From the IMG/VR virus record IMGVR_UViG_3300037453_000171, positions 1-64,000 of that record: 64,000 bases of DNA; one strand, given 5' to 3'. Positions 22,325-48,470 of this stretch are shown one piece after another. Both the position numbers and the translations under genes were made by a program. The notes below the pieces were generated by a model. It saw nothing but the letters and a program-made list of their open reading frames with translations, made no database searches and had not been told where the DNA came from. This DNA is from a virus. Lineage: Duplodnaviria; Caudoviricetes. Numbering within the stretch: the stretch's first letter is position 1; each line of letters begins with the position of its first letter.

Positions 22325-22855
22325 ATGACAAACATCAATCTTGCTCACGACAACTACTCTGACTACGTTGCTTCCGAGTTCTTCGCTGCACTGAATGTCG
22401 AGAACCTCACTCTCACTCCGAAGTACGCTCCGCAGACGGACAAGAATCCTGTGCCCGCCATCCTGGTACACGTGTCCGGTATGCAGCGCGGCACTGGCCT
22501 GCTCGTCAACTTCGATATGTGGCCTCGCTACGACTTCGAAGAAGAAGACCTGAAGAAGTTCTTCGATGAGAAGTTTCACCTTGAAGAAATCAAGGACAAG
22601 GACGGGAAGCCGGTAATGGTTCTGGACGAGAACGGCAAGCCCACTGATGAAGTGCAGACCAAGAAGGTCATCGACGGCTATGAAGCCAAGGGCAACTTCG
22701 CCGACATTCACTTCCGCATCGGCTACTGGGTCGAGACCGACGGCAAGGAGAAGGTCGTCCGTGAAGGCAAGCCGAAGTGGCTCGCCTACATCTCCAACGG
22801 TCAGGTCTGCAAGCTCAGCGGCGACGCTCGCGAATTCAACGGTCAGACTCTGTAG
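22325..22855 (+). CDS. Hypothetical protein, first gene of the plus-strand arm
   Basis: 176 aa, strong C-ending codon bias, followed by its own terminator. Confidence 0.8.
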   Translation: MTNINLAHDNYSDYVASEFFAALNVENLTLTPKYAPQTDKNPVPAILVHVSGMQRGTGLLVNFDMWPRYDFEEEDLKKFFDEKFHLEEIKDKDGKPVMVLDENGKPTDEVQTKKVIDGYEAKGNFADIHFRIGYWVETDGKEKVVREGKPKWLAYISNGQVCKLSGDAREFNGQTL

Positions 22856-22892
22856 TCAGACCATACTCCGCTCCCTGTTCTGATGCTTGATT

Positions 22893-22920
22893 AGGGTAGC
22901 CCTTCGGGGTTACCCTTTTC
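22893..22920 (+). terminator. Intrinsic terminator
   Basis: gggtagccc-ttcg-gggttaccc-tttt. Confidence 0.85.
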
Positions 22921-23334
22921 TGGTTCATCTGATTCAACACGCCGATTGATCCACGAGATCCAACACGCTTCCTCACGTGCGCGTGCGCGTCACGCGTGCG
23001 GTTTCTCTCTTAATGCGGCCTACTCGACACAGCCGTTATGTTATTATCTTTCGTAGTACTCGTGATCCACAATGTACCATGGAAAACACTGAAACTGTTC
23101 TCTCTCTTCACTGTCTCCAGAACGGATTCATTCTGAATCCTTACGATGAGGTGGATGAGGATTTCATCAGGGAGCAATCCAATTAGTTTGGTTTGCCCGT
23201 GAGAAGGAGGGTATCCCGCCTTTTGCCCTTCTCGCTTTCCTTCCTTTCGCTTTCCCGGATTTCATTTCCCCTGGAATTTCCGCAATTCCGGGGGAAGTGA
23301 TGCAACGGGGGAACTTTAAGGGGGTATTTATTGT

Positions 23335-23460
23335 TGGATAGATAGCATTGTTCTAATAGTAACAATTGTTCTATTAGATCTATTGTTATGTACCAAAGAA
23401 AGAAAGAAAGAATAATATATATAAATATATATTATCCTTCCTAAAGAAAGAAAGGTAGAA
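23335..23460. other. AT-rich palindromic region, candidate replication origin
   Basis: ataatatatat-aa-atatatattat palindrome, aaag repeats and duplicated attgttcta; lies near the strand switch. Confidence 0.4.
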
Positions 23461-23463
23461 ATA

Positions 23464-23566
23464 GTCTTAATGCAGCCATCCATCCTGGAACCGGGATAAA
23501 ATGGATGAAGGTGACAAGCCCTTGCCCGTCAGTGTCTAACACGCGAGAATAATGCAGAGTCAAGAC
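23464..23566 (+). ncRNA. Twister ribozyme (type P1)
   Basis: P1 GTCT/AGAC; U^AA at 23468/23469; P2 TGCA/TGCA; P3 CATCCAT/ATGGATG; P4 AAGG/CCTT with loop TGACAAGC; pseudoknot T1 TGAC/GTCA after GA; T2 GC/GC. Confidence 0.85.
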
Positions 23567-23571
23567 CAAAT

Positions 23572-23727
23572 AACAACTCCGTTTCTTGTGAGGCCCAGGG
23601 ATGGGATTGTCGCCGCAAGGAGCAGAACCGAAAAAGCCGTATCGCTGTGCGGGTGACGCCGAGTATACAGCAACGCCATATATCGGTAAAGGGCTGACCA
23701 GTCAGTGGGATTGGCGACGGAGTTGTT
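23572..23727 (+). ncRNA. Unassigned multibranch structured RNA
   Basis: 11-bp closing stem AACAACTCCGT/ACGGAGTTGTT; inner helices GCCC/GGGC, ACCGA/TCGGT, GCTGT/ACAGC, CCAGTC/GATTGG; CC-GCAA-GG GNRA loop. Confidence 0.55.
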
Positions 23728-23757
23728 TTTCTTTTGACAAATCAAAACTACAATCAT

Positions 23758-24117
23758 ATGAAGAAGATTACTATCAACGGCGTTGAATTCTGTGACTTCG
23801 GATCCAACAACTACAGTAATGGAATGCGTCTGATCACCTGTTATCCTATGCCTGAGAATATGGTTCAGGATGTTCTTGCGGGTAAGTACGAAGGCGTTTA
23901 TCTGAATCCTTCTGCCCGTTGCAGTGAGGAATTCTATGGTGTTCTTGGTACTCCTGAGCAGTACAAGGAGTTCAAGGAACGTCAGGAAGATGCGCAGATC
24001 TCTGGCTTGGTCATTGGCATGGCTGGCGGGTTTGATGCATTTCGCAAGCTTTCTGCCGAAGAATATAGGAAGATTGAACACGAAATTCGTTCTGCCTATA
24101 AGAATTGGTGGGAGTAG
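23758..24117 (+). CDS. Hypothetical protein (between the ribozymes)
   Basis: MKKITINGVEF... with an A-rich leader; the ORF track starts it at 23734. Confidence 0.75.
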   Translation: MKKITINGVEFCDFGSNNYSNGMRLITCYPMPENMVQDVLAGKYEGVYLNPSARCSEEFYGVLGTPEQYKEFKERQEDAQISGLVIGMAGGFDAFRKLSAEEYRKIEHEIRSAYKNWWE

Positions 24118-24123
24118 TATGCT

Positions 24124-24375
24124 ATGAGTAGCGGAAAGAAAAGGTATCGTGCCACGATCCAGATACCTGATATACTGCAAGAGATTCACGACGAACGAGC
24201 CTATGCCCAGTCTATGATAGATCGTAATTGTACTTACGATTGTTATTTCATGGACTGTGGCTATGGCTGTCCTGATGACTGTCCTATTCTGAAGTATTAT
24301 GACATTGTAGAAAGATGTCAGATTCGGGAAGAACAGGATGTAATGAAATTTTTAGGAGTCAGCCCGGGAGACTAA
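24124..24375 (+). CDS. Small Cys-rich protein (between the ribozymes)
   Basis: CTYDC...CGYGCPDDCP cluster. Confidence 0.6.
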   Translation: MSSGKKRYRATIQIPDILQEIHDERAYAQSMIDRNCTYDCYFMDCGYGCPDDCPILKYYDIVERCQIREEQDVMKFLGVSPGD

Positions 24376-24376
24376 A

Positions 24377-24422
24377 TCACACCTGATGAGACCGGGACGA
24401 AACGCTGAGAAGCGTCGTGTGA
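24377..24422 (+). ncRNA. Hammerhead ribozyme (type I)
   Basis: Stem I TCACAC/GTGTGA; core CTGATGA and GAAA; stem III CGCT-GAGA-AGCG; GUC^ site at 24416. Minimal stem II; its loop CCGGG can pair with CCCGG (24363-24367) in an upstream hairpin loop. Confidence 0.85.
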
Positions 24423-24441
24423 AACTAAAAACTATAATCAT

Positions 24442-24651
24442 ATGGATGTTTACAAATATATTTCTGATGAGGTTCGTGAATATTGGAGCCTGACTGAACA
24501 ATATATGAATGAAGTAATTCATTCTGCTCCCGAAGTAACTACCGAGATGGCGGAAGCACATCAGGGCGCGCTTCATAATCTTCGCATGATCATTTCTCAG
24601 GTTAATCGTGAGATTGGTGAATATGAAGCAGAAATTGAACACATTCAATAA
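24442..24651 (+). CDS. Hypothetical protein
   Basis: 69-aa ORF starting 26 nt after the hammerhead cleavage site. Confidence 0.65.
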   Translation: MDVYKYISDEVREYWSLTEQYMNEVIHSAPEVTTEMAEAHQGALHNLRMIISQVNREIGEYEAEIEHIQ

Positions 24652-24665
24652 AACATAGTACGCGT

Positions 24666-24866
24666 ATGAAACAGAGTAACAAGAAGAACCAGAAGGTTCG
24701 CAAGACTCGTCCTTTCGAGGGTATGATGAATCAGTTGAAGCGTGAAACTCTCGTGCTTGTTAACATGGACAAGTTCGAGGATTTCAAAAAGGCTCTCAAC
24801 GATGCCGACGTCGACTATGATCTCGGTGATTTCTACGGTAATGGTATATTCGTAGTCAAGAAGTGA
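24666..24866 (+). CDS. Hypothetical protein
   Basis: 66-aa ORF. Confidence 0.65.
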   Translation: MKQSNKKNQKVRKTRPFEGMMNQLKRETLVLVNMDKFEDFKKALNDADVDYDLGDFYGNGIFVVKK

Positions 24867-24932
24867 TCATTGCCGAGAATCTTTAGATGGTGTCAGCCGG
24901 TGAACATTTTTGTTTTATTGGCTGATTATCAT

Positions 24933-24940
24933 TATCTTTG
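24933..24940 (+). promoter_or_regulatory. Bacteroidota-type -7 element (TATCTTTG)
   Basis: Immediately upstream of the tRNA start at 24944. Confidence 0.45.
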
Positions 24941-24980
24941 AATGGCCCCTTAGCTCAGTTGGTTAGAGCAGCGGACTCAT

Positions 24981-25457
24981 TAGTTCTTTGAAAGAAGAGA
25001 TTGTGTGCACCGGAGGAAACTCTGGATGTAGAACCTCCCTAATTCGGTGAAGACTAAAGATATATTATATGGCGGAATTGGCATACGGCAGTAGATTGAC
25101 GGAAGCACCCTAAAGTCGTCATTAACAAAGCTCTTGGGTTTGTAGGTTCGAATCCTACTATAATATATTTATGTTAATACCGAGCCAATGTTATAGAGAG
25201 TCTTGGGAAAGACCTTAATATATGTCCTATACCCGGACATAATCTTAGACAGTGTGTAGAGACTATACAGGAGGAACCTAAGTTGAAATTATTCTGAGGA
25301 TTTGAGTCAAGGCTCTCAGAGTATCTTGCAAGATTTCAATATGGTTAAGATAGAGTCCAGACCACAAACAAATTAGTGAATAATGCTCGCGTTAAAAACA
25401 GGGGCTATTGCTGCGAAGCTCCCCCGCTAATTTGGTAGTGAAAACTATAGTGGTACG
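24981..25457 (+). mobile_element. Group I intron (477 nt, no ORF) in tRNA-CAU
   Basis: 5' exon ends in U and the intron ends in G; P AATTCGGTGAA, Q AATACCGAGC, R GTAGAGACTA, S AAGATAGAGTCC; P3 CCTCC/GGAGG. Confidence 0.88.
25063..25165 (+). ncRNA. tRNA-shaped domain nested in P5 of the intron
   Basis: 7-bp TATTATA/TATAATA acceptor-like stem, Leu-like D arm TGGCGGAATTGGCATACG, perfect T arm GTAGG-TTCGAAT-CCTAC; aberrant anticodon arm; no CCA. Confidence 0.7.
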
Positions 25458-25554
25458 AATCCGTGGGTCGCAGGTTCAAGTCCTGCAGGGGCCACGAGGT
25501 TTTTACCTCATTCGTGGAGCATTCTGGCACGGCTGTGAAGTCCTGCCAGTTTTT

Positions 25555-25648
25555 GGTCTGATAAGTTAACAGGTGCTAAAACCGCGGTAGGAAGTTAGAG
25601 AAATCTATCTAGCCCCGCATGCCGGTTCGAGTCCGGCTCAGACCACCA
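25555..25648 (+). ncRNA. tRNA-like RNA with encoded CCA but no canonical anticodon loop
   Basis: Acceptor GGTCTGA/TCAGACC plus ACCA; T arm GCCGG-TTCGAGT-CCGGC; D-like arm; anticodon arm replaced by an irregular stem capped by TAGA-GAAA-TCTA. Confidence 0.7.
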
Positions 25649-25681
25649 ATATCTGAAGTATAATTATAAATCTTTGTACAT

Positions 25682-26428
25682 ATGAGTAGTATTCCTACTG
25701 GCAAGCACATCCTCACCGGTGTTTGCGAAATCAGTGTATCCTGTGGATACGATGGTGAGAACACGGCTGAAGGTATTCTCCTTACTATCGACGGGAGGAA
25801 TTATCTTGCTTATACCGATCCGGATGACGGATATCGTTCTTATGGTTGCTTCTTTCAGACTGATGAATACGATCAGAAGAATCCGTTCCCGTATCAGGAT
25901 GTCATCGTCGAGAACCGTCAGTGGGATGAGGAGGATGAAGATGGTTATTACCAGAAAGGCGATGAAGTAGTTATCTACAATGCCGAGGATCACAGCGAGA
26001 TCTTCCGCTGCGGTACCGACAGGAGTGATGACTATTATCCTTGCGGTTATTGGCATTATTATCCGCAGAATCTGCCTATCAACAAGCAAAAGAAGCAGGA
26101 AGAGGACGCCAAGAAGTTCGATGATGCACTGAATACCATGTATGAAGTGTTCGGACTTGAGAAACCCGAATGTCGTATTCCTACGGAGAAGAATCCTGAG
26201 ATTACGGAGTATGAGCAGCTGAAGCCTGGCTCTGATTCCGATGTTGATGCCTTGATTGCTACAATGGATCTCGATAAATGGGTCAGGTTCGAAGCAAAGA
26301 CTCGCGATGCGCTCAAGATCAAATTCCAGGAGGCATTCAAGCAGTTCATGGGTGATCAGTTCTGGCGCAAGAACACCATAGATCTGCTGTCTTTGTATGA
26401 TGCATTCAAAGATATTCTCGGATTATGA
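25682..26428 (+). CDS. Hypothetical acidic protein
   Basis: 248 aa; DPDDGYRS and DDYYP motifs. Confidence 0.75.
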   Translation: MSSIPTGKHILTGVCEISVSCGYDGENTAEGILLTIDGRNYLAYTDPDDGYRSYGCFFQTDEYDQKNPFPYQDVIVENRQWDEEDEDGYYQKGDEVVIYNAEDHSEIFRCGTDRSDDYYPCGYWHYYPQNLPINKQKKQEEDAKKFDDALNTMYEVFGLEKPECRIPTEKNPEITEYEQLKPGSDSDVDALIATMDLDKWVRFEAKTRDALKIKFQEAFKQFMGDQFWRKNTIDLLSLYDAFKDILGL

Positions 26429-27210: not shown

Positions 27211-27780
27211 TTGTCTATGCAGAAAAACATAATATATACTCCTGAAGTCAAGTTTTGCGTGCGTTATTTGCTGGGTCACGGCGTCGATGCCTTTAATTTC
27301 GGCGCCGTCCAGCTCTCGCTTGATGAAAGCGATGCCCAGTATACGCTCGTGAAAGTGAAGAAGGACTCGTTCTTTGATGAGCTCGCAAGTAAACTGCGAG
27401 ATCTCTGGCCTCCTGGTGGACGAATGATTGGAGGGAAAGAATATCCATGGCGCGATTCCGTGGAGAATATATCCAAGCGCCTGATGGCTATGTGGGCTGA
27501 ACGCTTTCCTAAATCCGACAAGCAGTTTACCATTGAGGATTGTCTGTCTGCTGCTCGTGCTTATCTCGCCCAATACGAGAATGACACCAAGTATATGCTG
27601 TCCGTAAATAAATTTATCTGGAAGCAGCGAAACCTTGTGATGAGTAACGGGCTGATCAAACATGTCATGGAATCCAGGCTGGCGGATATGCTCGAAGGCA
27701 AGATCGAATACCAGAAGATCGATGACGAGTGGAATGACATTCTGAATTCTGCTACTGAAGATGATGGAGAAATAATTTAA
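27211..27780 (+). CDS. Hypothetical replication-associated protein
   Basis: Precedes DnaB; TATATTTG at 27206-27213 suggests the start is ATG 27217. Confidence 0.6.
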   Translation: MSMQKNIIYTPEVKFCVRYLLGHGVDAFNFGAVQLSLDESDAQYTLVKVKKDSFFDELASKLRDLWPPGGRMIGGKEYPWRDSVENISKRLMAMWAERFPKSDKQFTIEDCLSAARAYLAQYENDTKYMLSVNKFIWKQRNLVMSNGLIKHVMESRLADMLEGKIEYQKIDDEWNDILNSATEDDGEII

Positions 27781-27785
27781 CAGAT

Positions 27786-30023
27786 ATGATATCAGGAGCT
27801 AATTCATCCGAGAAGGAATTCATTGAAGAACTTGAACAGTTCGGAGGTGATTCCGGAGCGCGTTCCACTGATTCTGTCATTGACAAATTGGAAGAACGCA
27901 GAAAGAATGCCATGCGTGGCGGCGTCAACTGTATTCCATTTCCATTCGAGAGATTCCGTTCCGAGATTCCAGGAATAGAACAGGAACAGTATGTCATCAT
28001 CACGGCATCGACCAAGGTCGGCAAGTGCTTCGGTAAAGGTACTCGTGTTCGTATGGCTGACAACACAATCAAAAACATTGAAGATATTCAAGTTGGCGAT
28101 TGGGTTATGTCACCAGATGACGAAAAGCCTAAACAGGTGCTTTCTGTTAACAGTGGACGAGAACAATTGTATCGAATTCACAGTGAAACTCACGATGACT
28201 TAATTGTAAATGAGAGTCATATTATGTATTTATACAAGCCTAAGCGTACCCATAGAAATGCAAGGTATTTTACTGAAACAATTGGCAATCTTATTGAAAA
28301 GCAAAGAACTGTCAAAACATTCAAGAAAGAATATCTTGCTGTAGCATCAGATGAATGCGATTTTGGATTCGATATTTCGCTTCCAATTGAACCGTATTTC
28401 TATGGTTTATGGCTTGGTGATGGTGCAACGCAAGGATGCGATATTACAACGGCTGATCCGGAAGTTGTCGAGTATCTCAGACAGTATGCCGATAGACTCG
28501 GAATGAAGGTTTCAGAATATACCCATAAATCTTGTGGAAGATATAATATCTGTCGTAAGTCACATAAAGATAAGCTTGGGTTTGAAAAGCGATTAGTCGT
28601 TGTAACTGGCAAGCAAAAAGAGCACATCAATCGCGATTATCTGAATGCTTCGGTTCAAGAAAGATATGAGCTTTTGGCTGGATTGATTGATTCCGACGGC
28701 TATCTTAATCATGCTGGAACCGGATACAAGATAACGATGAAATATCTGTCTTGTATCAAAGATATTCAGGAACTGGCTCGAAGTCTTGGTTTATCTGCTC
28801 ATGTAAATAAGAAATACAATTCTAAGTTAGACCGGTATTATTATATACTCAGTTTATACGGAAAGAATTGTACAAAGATTCCGGTTAAGATTCCAAGAAA
28901 GAAATGCCGTCTTACTTGTAAAGATTCGCATCATTTTTCGTTTTCAATTGAACCAATCGGCGAAGGAGATTATTATGGCTTGACTTTAGGCGGTAATCAT
29001 CTGTTCTTGCTTGAAGATTATACGGTTGTTCATAATTCCCAGCTCGCAAACTATCTGTATCTCTACAATGTACTGGATTATTGTTTCCTGCATCCTGAAA
29101 AATGCTCGTGTCACATAATCTATTTCGCACTGGAGGAATCCGTGCAGCGCGTCATCGAGAGATATATGTCCCATCTGCTGTGGAAGCTTGACGGAAAACG
29201 GTTTGCACCTGCTGATTTGCGTTCTACTTCCGTAGATTATCCTGTTCCGAAGGAAATCATAGATCTGCTCAAGTCCGAGAAATATCAGGAACGGTTCAGG
29301 TTCTTCGAGAAATGCGTTCAGTTCGATACGGAAAACACCAATCCGACAGGTATCCTTCGCACCTGTGAGGAGTATGCGAAAGCCGTGGGCACTTACAAGT
29401 CCAATACTATCACATCCCACTCCGACTGGACTAAGGAAGTAGAGGTATTTGATGATTATATCCAGGATGATCCGAATCATTACAAGATATGCATCATAGA
29501 TCATATTTCTTTGGTTGACAAGGAGCAGGGATTTGGCAAGAAGGAAACCATCGATAAGGTGTCGGAGTATTTCGTCAAGTATCTGCGCAATCGTTACAAG
29601 TATACCTGTGTTGTCATCCAGCAGCAGTCTGCGGAAGCGGAAGGTCTTGAAGCGATGAAGCAAAAGCGTATCGTTCCGAGCAATGCAACCGGTGGTGATT
29701 CGAAGTATACTTTCCGGGATTGTAATATCGCTCTTGGCTTGTTTGATCCGTCCAGATTAGGCTTATCCACTTACAAAGGCTATGACATAGCTGATGGGCT
29801 GAAAAGCTATGGACGGTTCATGAACGTCATTGCCAACCGTGACGGAGAGATGGGCGGTATATGTCCACTTTTCTTCGATGGTGCAGTGTGTAATTTCGAG
29901 GAACTGCCCAGACCTGATGACGTATCGGAAATCAGAAAATACTACGACAAGGTGAATGACCTGAAATCCTGGAAACAACAGAAGAAACTACAACAACTGT
30001 CCTTGTTTAACTTTTTCAAATGA
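27786..30023 (+). CDS. dnaB: DnaB-like replicative helicase (intein-containing)
   Basis: Walker A ASTKVGK|S, YFALEE, IIDHI, VVIQQ, IANRDG. Confidence 0.88.
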   Translation: MISGANSSEKEFIEELEQFGGDSGARSTDSVIDKLEERRKNAMRGGVNCIPFPFERFRSEIPGIEQEQYVIITASTKVGKCFGKGTRVRMADNTIKNIEDIQVGDWVMSPDDEKPKQVLSVNSGREQLYRIHSETHDDLIVNESHIMYLYKPKRTHRNARYFTETIGNLIEKQRTVKTFKKEYLAVASDECDFGFDISLPIEPYFYGLWLGDGATQGCDITTADPEVVEYLRQYADRLGMKVSEYTHKSCGRYNICRKSHKDKLGFEKRLVVVTGKQKEHINRDYLNASVQERYELLAGLIDSDGYLNHAGTGYKITMKYLSCIKDIQELARSLGLSAHVNKKYNSKLDRYYYILSLYGKNCTKIPVKIPRKKCRLTCKDSHHFSFSIEPIGEGDYYGLTLGGNHLFLLEDYTVVHNSQLANYLYLYNVLDYCFLHPEKCSCHIIYFALEESVQRVIERYMSHLLWKLDGKRFAPADLRSTSVDYPVPKEIIDLLKSEKYQERFRFFEKCVQFDTENTNPTGILRTCEEYAKAVGTYKSNTITSHSDWTKEVEVFDDYIQDDPNHYKICIIDHISLVDKEQGFGKKETIDKVSEYFVKYLRNRYKYTCVVIQQQSAEAEGLEAMKQKRIVPSNATGGDSKYTFRDCNIALGLFDPSRLGLSTYKGYDIADGLKSYGRFMNVIANRDGEMGGICPLFFDGAVCNFEELPRPDDVSEIRKYYDKVNDLKSWKQQKKLQQLSLFNFFK
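28026..29036 (+). mobile_element. Intein (337 aa) with LAGLIDADG endonuclease
   Basis: CFGKGT...ESH...VVHN followed by Ser; GLWLGDG and LAGLIDSDG motifs; inserted in Walker A. Confidence 0.93.
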
Positions 30024-48217: not shown

Positions 48218-48470
48218 GTCTGCATACGATTCCGCATAGCGAATTATAGATGTAGAATAGCGATTTTAAAGGCAAAAACAAAAAGGCTTCAAAAATCCTT
48301 GCGGGAGATTGAAGCCAATCAATTGAAAATTAAAGAGTTACTTATGTGGAGATAAGGGGATTCGAACCCCTGACCCCCTGCTTGCAAAGCAGTAGATTTC
48401 TCCGCTTAATCACATGACAGTCACATAAATAGATATGAAAGAAAATAATTCTGCAAATGATTCTGCAAAA
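48218..48470. other. attP: tRNA-Ala(UGC) 3' half as core (48347-48392, minus strand) flanked by arm repeats
   Basis: Reverse complement CTGCTTTGCAAGCAGGGGGTCAGGGGTTCGAATCCCCTTATCTCCA with no 5' half; arm repeats gtctgcatacgattccgcatag (48218) and ttctgcaaatgattctgcaaaa (48449). Confidence 0.8.

Follow-up and report, generated by a model that had tools for sequence, protein, structure and literature searches.

A Cluster of Ribozymes, an Intron-Split tRNA and tRNA-Like RNAs in a crAss-like Phage Genome, Probably a Mosaic of Separately Acquired RNA Modules

Organization of the RNA Island

A cluster of self-cleaving ribozymes, an intron-split tRNA gene and tRNA-like RNAs (hereinafter, the RNA island) occupies positions 23464-25648 of a 64,000-nucleotide stretch of the IMG/VR virus record IMGVR_UViG_3300037453_000171. 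This whole stretch, referred to below as the window, is the first 64 kb of a viral genome of 99,880 bp with direct terminal repeats, which, judging by its gene content, belongs to a crAss-like phage; the phage is uncultured and comes from the rumen. A bovine gut metagenome is the sole sequencing run that contains the stretch nearly whole. The island lies in the + strand arm of the genome and begins after a divergent 1264-aa virion-type gene. An initial annotation had described seven co-oriented catalytic or structured RNAs here, interleaved with four small open reading frames (ORFs), and had proposed that they form a largely RNA-driven programme that cuts a single early transcript into units with different ends and stabilities. 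The features of the island and its upstream border are as follows.

23395-23455, + strand: AAAGAAAGAAAG repeats around an AT-rich palindrome; the motif is unique in the 99.9-kb genome
23464-23566, + strand: type-P1 twister ribozyme with P3 and an optional P5, predicted cut between U23468 and A23469; Rfam twister-P1 (RF03160) match at 23464-23565 on the + strand, E 0.002
23567-23757, + strand: 5′ leader of ORF1 (the "unknown RNA" of the initial annotation), with the last ~35 nt conserved and AAAACUACAAUCAU before the AUG
23758-24117, + strand: ORF1, 119 aa; 72 homologues with 48-87% identity
24124-24375, + strand: ORF2, 83 aa, cysteine-rich, from the ORF list; its stop codon lies in the hammerhead
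24356-24421, + strand: RAGATH-1 type hammerhead ribozyme (RF03152, 50.3 bits, E 1e-6), predicted cut after C24416
24442-24651, + strand: ORF3, 69 aa, from the ORF list; weak match to phrog_6405 (E 0.004)
24666-24866, + strand: ORF4, 66 aa, from the ORF list; homologue in the relative L089
24909-24940, + strand: promoter-like element of the Bacteroidota type (TTTG, 20-nt spacer, TAnnTTTG), its end 3 nt upstream of the tRNA
24944-24980, + strand: 5′ exon of tRNA(CAU), ending at U36; ARAGORN on the joined exons
24981-25457, + strand: ORF-less group I intron of 477 nt, guide GUG at 25003-25005, terminal G at 25457; Rfam Intron_gpI (RF00028) match at 24976-25379 on the + strand, 41.5 bits (gathering threshold 50), E 1.9e-8
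25063-25166, + strand: tRNA-shaped module capping intron P5; Rfam tRNA match, 30.8 bits (gathering threshold 29), E 0.001
25458-25494, + strand: 3′ exon of tRNA(CAU), A37 through the discriminator A, without an encoded CCA
25524-25554, + strand: terminator-like hairpin, rich in GC and with U5 on its 3′ side, separating the tRNA from the mimic; found from sequence and fold
25555-25648, + strand: CCA-ending tRNA-like RNA (the mimic); Rfam tRNA (RF00005) match at 25555-25645, 29.2 bits (gathering threshold 29), E 0.003

At its curated thresholds, Rfam reported none of the island elements, and ARAGORN reported no tRNA there. A permissive Rfam scan of 22800-26200 gave five co-oriented matches at the positions proposed by the initial annotation. 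A blastn search with the whole island against phage records yielded matches limited to the tRNA half and the nested module. Protein searches for near relatives with ORF 25682-26428, ORF 22325-22855 and the C-terminal part of a helicase found either none or two short contigs without the island.

The initial list of seven RNAs can be regarded as largely right, as far as sequence comparison can tell. Comparative tests back five of them (the twister, the hammerhead, tRNA(CAU), the intron and the nested module), which appear solid; the CCA-ending mimic is plausible and has no relatives, while the "unknown RNA" shares no structure with its counterpart and is unsupported. Every element lies on the + strand, at or near the place first assigned to it, and four small ORFs are indeed interleaved with the RNAs, the true start of ORF1 being 23758.

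Self-Cleaving Ribozymes and the Small ORFs

The first ribozyme was compared with the published description of twisters, which specifies stems P1, P2 and P4, the U-A site in J1-2 and the definitions of the helices and pseudoknots (PMC5408937). All the helices and the U-A site are present: P1 GUCU/AGAC, UAA, P2 UGCA/UGCA and P4 AAGG/CCUU, with P3 and P5 being optional. The T1 pseudoknot, in which L4 forms 3 bp with L1, reads GAC/GUC both in the window and in L089, with CAC/GUG in L084 and CCC/GGG in the consensus; the T2 contact between the GC of L2 and L4 is GC/GC in the window and AC/GU in L089. The score of the match is below the Rfam gathering threshold (29 vs. 67.2 bits), which can be explained largely by the penalty that the model imposes on the changed T1 nucleotides and the P5 insert; the L084 twister scores 57.5 bits. 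T1 pairing is kept via two double changes. Region 23464-23566 was taken for a genuine twister with a predicted cleavage site. The AAAGAAAGAAAG-repeat (AAAG-repeat) element is common to the window, L088 and L089, and in each of them it is located directly 5′ of the first ribozyme. This element, at 23395-23455, may be the promoter or the transcript start of the small-ORF operon.

The region between the twister and ORF1, which the initial annotation had listed as an RNA of its own, is most likely simply the 5′ leader of ORF1. The z-score of its fold relative to shuffled sequences is −1.1, and that of its L089 counterpart is 0.03. The two leaders share only the last ~35 nt and a GGGUGAC block, and their two-sequence consensus fold is weak. 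No Rfam match at E<10 and no paralogue in the genome were found for 23567-23757. The idea of a new structured RNA or ribozyme was rejected because the fold is not significant, no structure is kept with L089, and the region is missing in L088.

The second ribozyme, the hammerhead, has a complete catalytic core (CUGAUGA/GAAA/GUC), three stems and a 5′ hairpin, the loop of which is paired with that of stem II. Its score is lower than the gathering threshold of 56.3 bits; the hammerheads of its relatives score 54-77 bits. In five RAGATH-1 sequences, those of the window and four viral or metagenome contigs, 94% of the pairs are standard, and two-sided changes are found in 11 of 20 pairs; two of these lie in the loop-loop helix, and stems I and III also covary. 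The covariation score was reached by no shuffle. The stop codon of ORF2 (24373-24375) is located inside the hammerhead, in its 5′ hairpin, and the predicted 3′ product begins 25 nt before the AUG of ORF3. The leader of ORF3 repeats that of ORF1, the sequence AAAACUA(C/U)AAUCAUAUG being present at 23744 and 24428. Pairs of ribozymes can also be noted elsewhere: in L084 (1158-1346), a twister-P1 is located 49 nt upstream of a RAGATH-1 hammerhead, and in L085 (12761-12933), a RAGATH-1 hammerhead is followed ~40 nt on by a type III hammerhead.

As for the small ORFs, 31 of the 51 nucleotide differences between ORF1 and its L088 counterpart are in third codon positions, and ORF1 is, from this pattern, a real gene under purifying selection. 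The third-position-biased divergence and the 72 homologues of ORF1 make the 209-aa ORF antisense to it (23560-24189, − strand) almost certainly spurious. Neither ORF1 nor ORF2 has a Pfam or PHROG family match; no relatives of ORF2 were found, and it is missing from L088. Run X2 does not cover ORF2; gaps in read cover were given no weight as evidence. A 335-nt contig in run X2 spans the hammerhead and ORF3 with 2 differences. The L089 homologue of ORF4 has 34% aa identity and is positioned after the hammerhead.

Ribozyme Turnover in Related Genomes

The metagenome contig L088 aligns to the window upstream of 23460 and then over ORF1 (86% nt identity) and the hammerhead. The site occupied in the window by the twister and the 190-nt leader holds a pistol ribozyme in L088 (52.5 bits, threshold 34.5), followed by a 19-nt spacer and the start of ORF1; ORF2 is absent. 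In L089, the same upstream element is followed by a twister, ~150 nt, an unrelated ORF, a hammerhead and the ORF4 homologue. According to these comparisons, a self-cleaver of some class is kept at the head of the operon in close relatives, and the genes between the ribozymes are exchanged. That the class changes while a self-cleaver stays at this promoter-proximal site suggests that cleavage itself is selected for.

The wider occurrence of ribozymes was analyzed in 11 contexts of ORF1 homologues with DNA available, the window included, by a ribozyme scan to E 0.1. A hammerhead directly follows the ORF1 homologue in three of them (the window, L088 and L092). A second hammerhead is present in L092, upstream of the ORF preceding the ORF1 homologue, and in L097 a pistol is located ~800 nt downstream of the homologue. 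No ribozyme was found at E up to 0.1 in the other seven contexts. Most ORF1 homologues thus have no ribozymes nearby, which suggests that the ribozymes are facultative modules.

The Split tRNA(CAU) and Its Group I Intron

The joined exons form a canonical 74-nt cloverleaf. If exon 1 ends at 24980, the anticodon loop is the 7-nt CUCAUAA; ARAGORN, run on a join one base longer, reported an 8-nt loop. Intronless tRNAs from metagenomes pass from the position of 24980 directly into the sequence of exon 2, AAUCCG... No spliced junction of the exact window tRNA was found in the runs, the joints from 24966 to 25458 belonging to other, intronless tRNAs. This tRNA(CAU) is probably of the AUA-reading Ile2 type. 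Its acceptor stem presumably resembles that of Escherichia coli ileX.

The group I intron model is matched over its full length, inserts of 104 and 60 nt notwithstanding. A search with an 18-mer of the intron core led to 22 IMG/VR loci (L062-L083) on contigs of 27-364 kb, with five conserved blocks common with the window. ARAGORN with introns allowed identified tRNA-Leu(UAA), Lys(UUU), Arg(UCU), Tyr(GUA), Ser(UGA), one tRNA with the ochre suppressor-like anticodon UUA, and CAU tRNAs as hosts of this family, split in the anticodon loop after tRNA position 33, 34 or 36. More than one copy is present on some of the contigs. Of the 23 sequences, 18 have the conserved 3′ block ...GUGGUANG, whose last base before the exon is G. 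The guide triplet, which precedes P2 at a constant distance, changes in step with the final three bases of the exon (CAU/GUG, CUU/GAG and ACU/GGU, read by eye); this amounts to covariation of P1, which fixes the splice sites. In the window, P1 consists of 3 bp and ends in a G-U pair. From these features, the split tRNA holds a group I intron that is predicted to be self-splicing. By eye, an 11-nt GAAA-tetraloop receptor CCUAAG/UAUGG can be seen in P8 (25268-25273 with 25342-25346), and P2 ends in a GAAA loop (25016-25019), as in small IC3-type tRNA introns.

Intron-like contigs corresponding to window positions 25000-25400 were observed in run X7, a sheep-gut metatranscriptome, with a summed depth of up to ~13,900, far over that of the flanking exons. 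RNAs of this intron family seem to be abundant or stable in rumen-type samples.

Small ORF-less introns are present in the anticodon loops of bacterial tRNAs as well, the Azoarcus tRNA-Ile(CAU) intron being an example. The similarity includes the CAU tRNA host, the 3-bp P1 with a G-U end, the GAAA tetraloops and the CCUAAG/UAUGG receptor, as read from the sequence. Unlike the bacterial introns, the family described here is phage-encoded, has at least seven types of tRNA as hosts and, in the window, carries a whole tRNA-like RNA on the tip of P5. Group I introns in the anticodon regions of bacterial tRNAs are already known (PMC4090602), and self-splicing introns in bacterial tRNA anticodon loops are credited there to Reinhold-Hurek and Shub (1992). 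In crAss-like phages, introns have been reported in protein genes (PMC7886860); the literature search found nothing specific on a group I intron family in phage tRNAs.

The tRNA-Shaped Module in P5

According to the Rfam alignment, the tRNA-shaped module is located in the terminal loop of P5. Across the intron family, the P5 tip carries unrelated inserts of 34-128 nt, and the tRNA-like module is found in the window copy alone; joints in DNA and RNA runs also reveal relatives without it. In the family to which the module belongs, a 6-bp helix takes the place of the anticodon arm, and the loop of this helix forms a pseudoknot. The window copy has the 7-bp acceptor stem, the D arm with GG, the canonical T arm, the core GGCAGUAGAUUGACGGAAGC, the 6-bp helix and a CCC/GGG pseudoknot. 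In 29 distinct copies, pairing is 100%, and two-sided changes occur in all seven acceptor pairs and in four of the five T-stem pairs. The pseudoknot between the loop of the 6-bp helix and a position in the variable loop covaries as well (CCC/GGG, CUC/GAG, CCU/AGG and CCAC/GUGG). A covariance model of the family (R1) gives 97-124 bits for its members, 118 bits for the window copy and less than 41 bits for ordinary tRNAs. Judging by these tests, the module is a member of a phage tRNA-like RNA family that was not found in Rfam 15; the literature search likewise returned nothing specific on it.

The 20-nt core of the module is present in 55 IMG/VR contigs and in two ~95-kb metagenome-assembled contigs among ~185,000 prokaryote genomes. 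Since an exact 20-mer served to collect the members, the search itself accounts in part for the invariance of the core. In cr60_1 (L001 3994-4096; 24065-24167 in the record), an unannotated 103-nt member is located 8 nt upstream of a tRNA(CUA) gene, which is annotated as "tRNA-Gln" and bears the amber-suppressor anticodon CUA. In larger phages, the family is free-standing within tRNA arrays. The crAss-type copies have a free-ended acceptor helix; in others it is lengthened by 4-10 bp, and in the window copy by 5 bp, which means that the module can cap longer helices. A sheep-gut RNA library contains a 165-nt contig with a depth of 386 that spans 25029-25193, including the junctions of the intron with the module, and has 5 differences; it documents presence in the library and is not evidence of processing.

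Two other readings of the module were considered and rejected. The CUA in its loop is not an anticodon, because the triplet varies (CUA, CUG, UUA, CCA and ACG) and its neighbours pair in the covarying pseudoknot. YrlA/Y RNAs (RF02553; PMC4201824) are likewise non-decoding RNAs with tRNA-like acceptor, D and T elements that occur in phages and are substrates of tRNA enzymes. However, the YrlA model gives only noise on the tRNA-like elements of the window (12.5 bits vs. a gathering threshold of 69), the Ro60-binding motif of Y RNAs, GNCGAAN0-1G, is not matched by the module core GACGGAAG, and no TROVE/Ro60 partner gene was found in the phage or in five other carrier records.

It is conceivable, if rather doubtful, that three functional RNAs come from one tRNA gene: the tRNA after splicing, the intron once excised, and a tRNA-like noncoding RNA hosted by the intron and freed from P5 by RNase P and RNase Z after splicing. 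If so, the phage would carry a small RNA gene hosted by an intron, and non-decoding tRNA mimics with a pseudoknotted arm would form a new class. The third RNA would come from a widespread, uncatalogued family of gut and rumen phages that is otherwise found beside suppressor tRNAs.

The CCA-Ending tRNA Mimic

The mimic has a perfect 7-bp acceptor stem and T arm, a canonical D loop, U8, A14, G18G19 and an encoded ACCA. Its anticodon and variable arms form one irregular hairpin of ~35 nt with a GAAA loop, so that there is no readable anticodon. The z-score of its minimum free energy fold is −2.9. ARAGORN calls it Tyr(GUA) at a lowered threshold alone, with two mismatches in the anticodon stem and no U33. 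No relatives were found by two exact-pattern scans, blastn, nhmmer or model R1. The intact top half and the well-formed replacement arm argue against random decay. In general, the mimic appears to be well formed and plausible, and it is unsupported by relatives.

A possibly similar feature is located far from the island. The only sequence of the window to match the tRNA model at the curated threshold (31.6 bits) is located at 48347-48419 (− strand). It has a mismatched acceptor stem and is not called by ARAGORN, and it may be another atypical tRNA-like gene.

Transcription Units

The promoter consensus of Bacteroidota is TTTG-N17-23-TAnnTTTG. This pattern has just two + strand matches in the whole genome, 24909-24940 and 27182-27213, which are closely similar over 32 nt; the second is located just before the ORF at 27211, and the first lies inside a long hairpin (24884-24937). 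The spacer of both twins contains CTGATTATCA; this spacer is palindromic and could be an operator. Two terminator-like hairpins are located after the upstream ORF. The hairpin at 25524-25554 was not listed by the consensus terminator scan, owing to a bulge and a 9-nt loop. A scan for sigma-70 promoters gave chance-level results. The promoter-like element and the terminator-like hairpins suggest that the island comprises at least two or three units, not one transcript.

Origin and Possible Function of the Island

The comparisons described above establish what the modules are, that their structures are intact, which families they belong to and how they are gained and lost in relatives. On this basis, the island is probably a mosaic of separately acquired cis-acting RNA modules, most likely making up three units. 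The initial annotation held that the elements are linked and named independent, unlinked occurrence in relatives as the observation that would speak against this. When synteny was checked, the parts proved largely to come and go independently, namely the twister with the leader, ORF2, the P5 module and the 3′ intron insert.

Cleavage, splicing, the boundaries of transcripts and every downstream effect on RNA stability are what we infer from the folds and motifs, and the following scheme is proposed in this sense. Unit 1 would be an operon of four small genes punctuated by ribozymes. The twister, located just downstream of the conserved element, would remove the first nucleotides of the transcript, and the mRNA would receive a 5′-OH and the folded twister as a cap-like structure. 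The hammerhead would cut at the stop codon of ORF2 and split the ORF1-ORF2 RNA, ending in a 2′,3′-cyclic phosphate and the hammerhead fold, from the ORF3-ORF4 RNA, beginning with a 5′-OH and a short conserved leader. Unit 2 would be the tRNA(CAU) with its own promoter-like element, split after U36 by a self-splicing intron from a family that has apparently spread into the anticodon loops of many kinds of tRNA encoded by large phages of the gut and rumen. At the variable tip of its P5, this intron would have captured a complete tRNA-like RNA, which may serve as a peripheral folding domain or be set free by RNase P and RNase Z once the intron is excised. Unit 3 would be the CCA-ending, non-decoding tRNA-like RNA.

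Punctuation of the small-ORF operon by ribozymes is the best-supported function. The cutting of polycistronic transcripts by ribozymes into RNAs of different stability is a published hypothesis (PMC6765202). The part of the initial proposal in which ribozymes cut the transcript into units stands insofar as the two self-cleavers are located exactly at cistron borders; the single coordinated programme is not supported. The differing end chemistries would be expected by analogy with the established chemistry of ribozymes, group I introns and RNase P/Z.

Several observations weigh against the modular scheme outlined above. The twister, the hammerhead and the intron are all under the curated thresholds of Rfam, and P2 of the L089 twister carries a C-A mismatch. 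The mimic rests on a single sequence, and the promoter and terminator calls are pattern matches only. The RNA run contains solely intron-like contigs, and the library possibly includes DNA. In addition, since most ORF1 homologues have no ribozymes nearby, punctuation is not required for the expression of ORF1.

It is unlikely that the elements are selfish or neutral passengers of a recombination-prone early region, the ribozymes with the leader being homology patches for the shuffling of cassettes and the mimic a decaying tRNA. This would agree with the differences among relatives in the cassettes between nearly identical ribozyme and leader sequences, with the ribozyme-free surroundings of most ORF1 homologues, with the mobile nature of group I introns and with the mimic having no relatives. 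However, the preservation of catalytic cores and tertiary pairs through compensatory changes is a sign that the RNA fold is under selection. A ribozyme of a different class swapped in at the same site cannot be a homology patch, and the mimic combines a flawless acceptor/T-arm half with a well-formed arm instead of scattered damage.

The programme suggested initially, in which one early transcript runs across the island and is cut by the twister, the hammerhead, the intron and RNase P/Z in a coordinated, RNA-driven way into units with planned ends and lifetimes, is partly supported. The elements are co-oriented and tightly packed, the ribozymes are located at cistron borders, a ribozyme is retained at the 5′ site despite the change of class, and the general idea has been published (PMC6765202). 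However, the tRNA has a promoter-like element 3 nt upstream and a terminator-like hairpin downstream, which makes a single early transcript improbable, and modules are gained and lost independently in relatives. The claim of one coordinated programme exceeds the evidence and is partly contradicted by it, and we consider it quite unlikely.

It is highly improbable that the twister and the hammerhead free a 948-nt ORF1-ORF2 RNA (23469-24416) that the host RtcB circularises into a long-lived circular mRNA: the 5′-OH and 2′,3′-cyclic phosphate ends of the two ribozymes are indeed the substrates of the RtcB ligase, and the Bacteroides thetaiotaomicron control genome has an RtcB-family match, but no circular junction was seen in the runs (X2 and X4 do not cover 23468-23719), the phage encodes no RtcB, the L088 pistol cuts near its own 3′ end, most relatives have no ribozyme bracket, and we know of no RtcB-circularised mRNA in a DNA phage.

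Comparison with Known Ribozyme-Rich Neighbourhoods

To our knowledge, the roles of nearly all bacterial and phage self-cleaving ribozymes remain unknown. The clustering of ribozymes near each other and near phage genes is already established: in the known neighbourhoods, several self-cleaving classes (twister, hammerhead, pistol, hatchet and RAGATH motifs) are located close together between small, often phage-related genes, and the cutting of polycistrons has been proposed as their role (PMC6765202). The mosaic in the window is similar in this respect, and RAGATH-1 hammerheads occur beside twisters (L084) or other hammerheads (L085), as they do there. In contrast to those neighbourhoods, two close relatives here differ in the ribozyme at one orthologous site, a pistol in one and a twister in the other, and the array runs on into an intron-split tRNA and tRNA-like RNAs. 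Theta (HDV-like) ribozymes are likewise small ribozymes found with tRNA and suppressor-tRNA genes of gut phages (PMC10879173); unlike them, the ribozymes of the window flank protein genes, not tRNAs. A theta/HDV-like ribozyme after a tRNA was considered and rejected, as the permissive Rfam scan gave no match behind either tRNA-shaped gene.

The same-site swap of a twister and a pistol, the intron family of phage tRNAs, the tRNA-like RNA family and its capture in P5 appear to be new. Two close relatives with different ribozyme classes at the same site ahead of the same gene represent a natural experiment, in which the cut is kept and the sequence is not, and the small-gene operon offers a compact system for testing cutting by ribozymes. 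We did not find descriptions of two of the RNA families: the tRNA introns, which have one suppressor among their hosts, and the covarying tRNA-shaped RNA that has no anticodon. The latter occurs in at least 55 viral contigs and often adjoins the suppressor tRNAs used in stop-codon recoding; nested in an intron, it illustrates the movement of modules between RNA scaffolds.

Other Features of the Window

Downstream of the island, the ORF at 27786-30023 encodes a 745-aa protein resembling replicative helicases. Relatives of the C-terminal part of this protein are found on short contigs only. An apparent insert the size of an intein is located at approximately residues 80-410.

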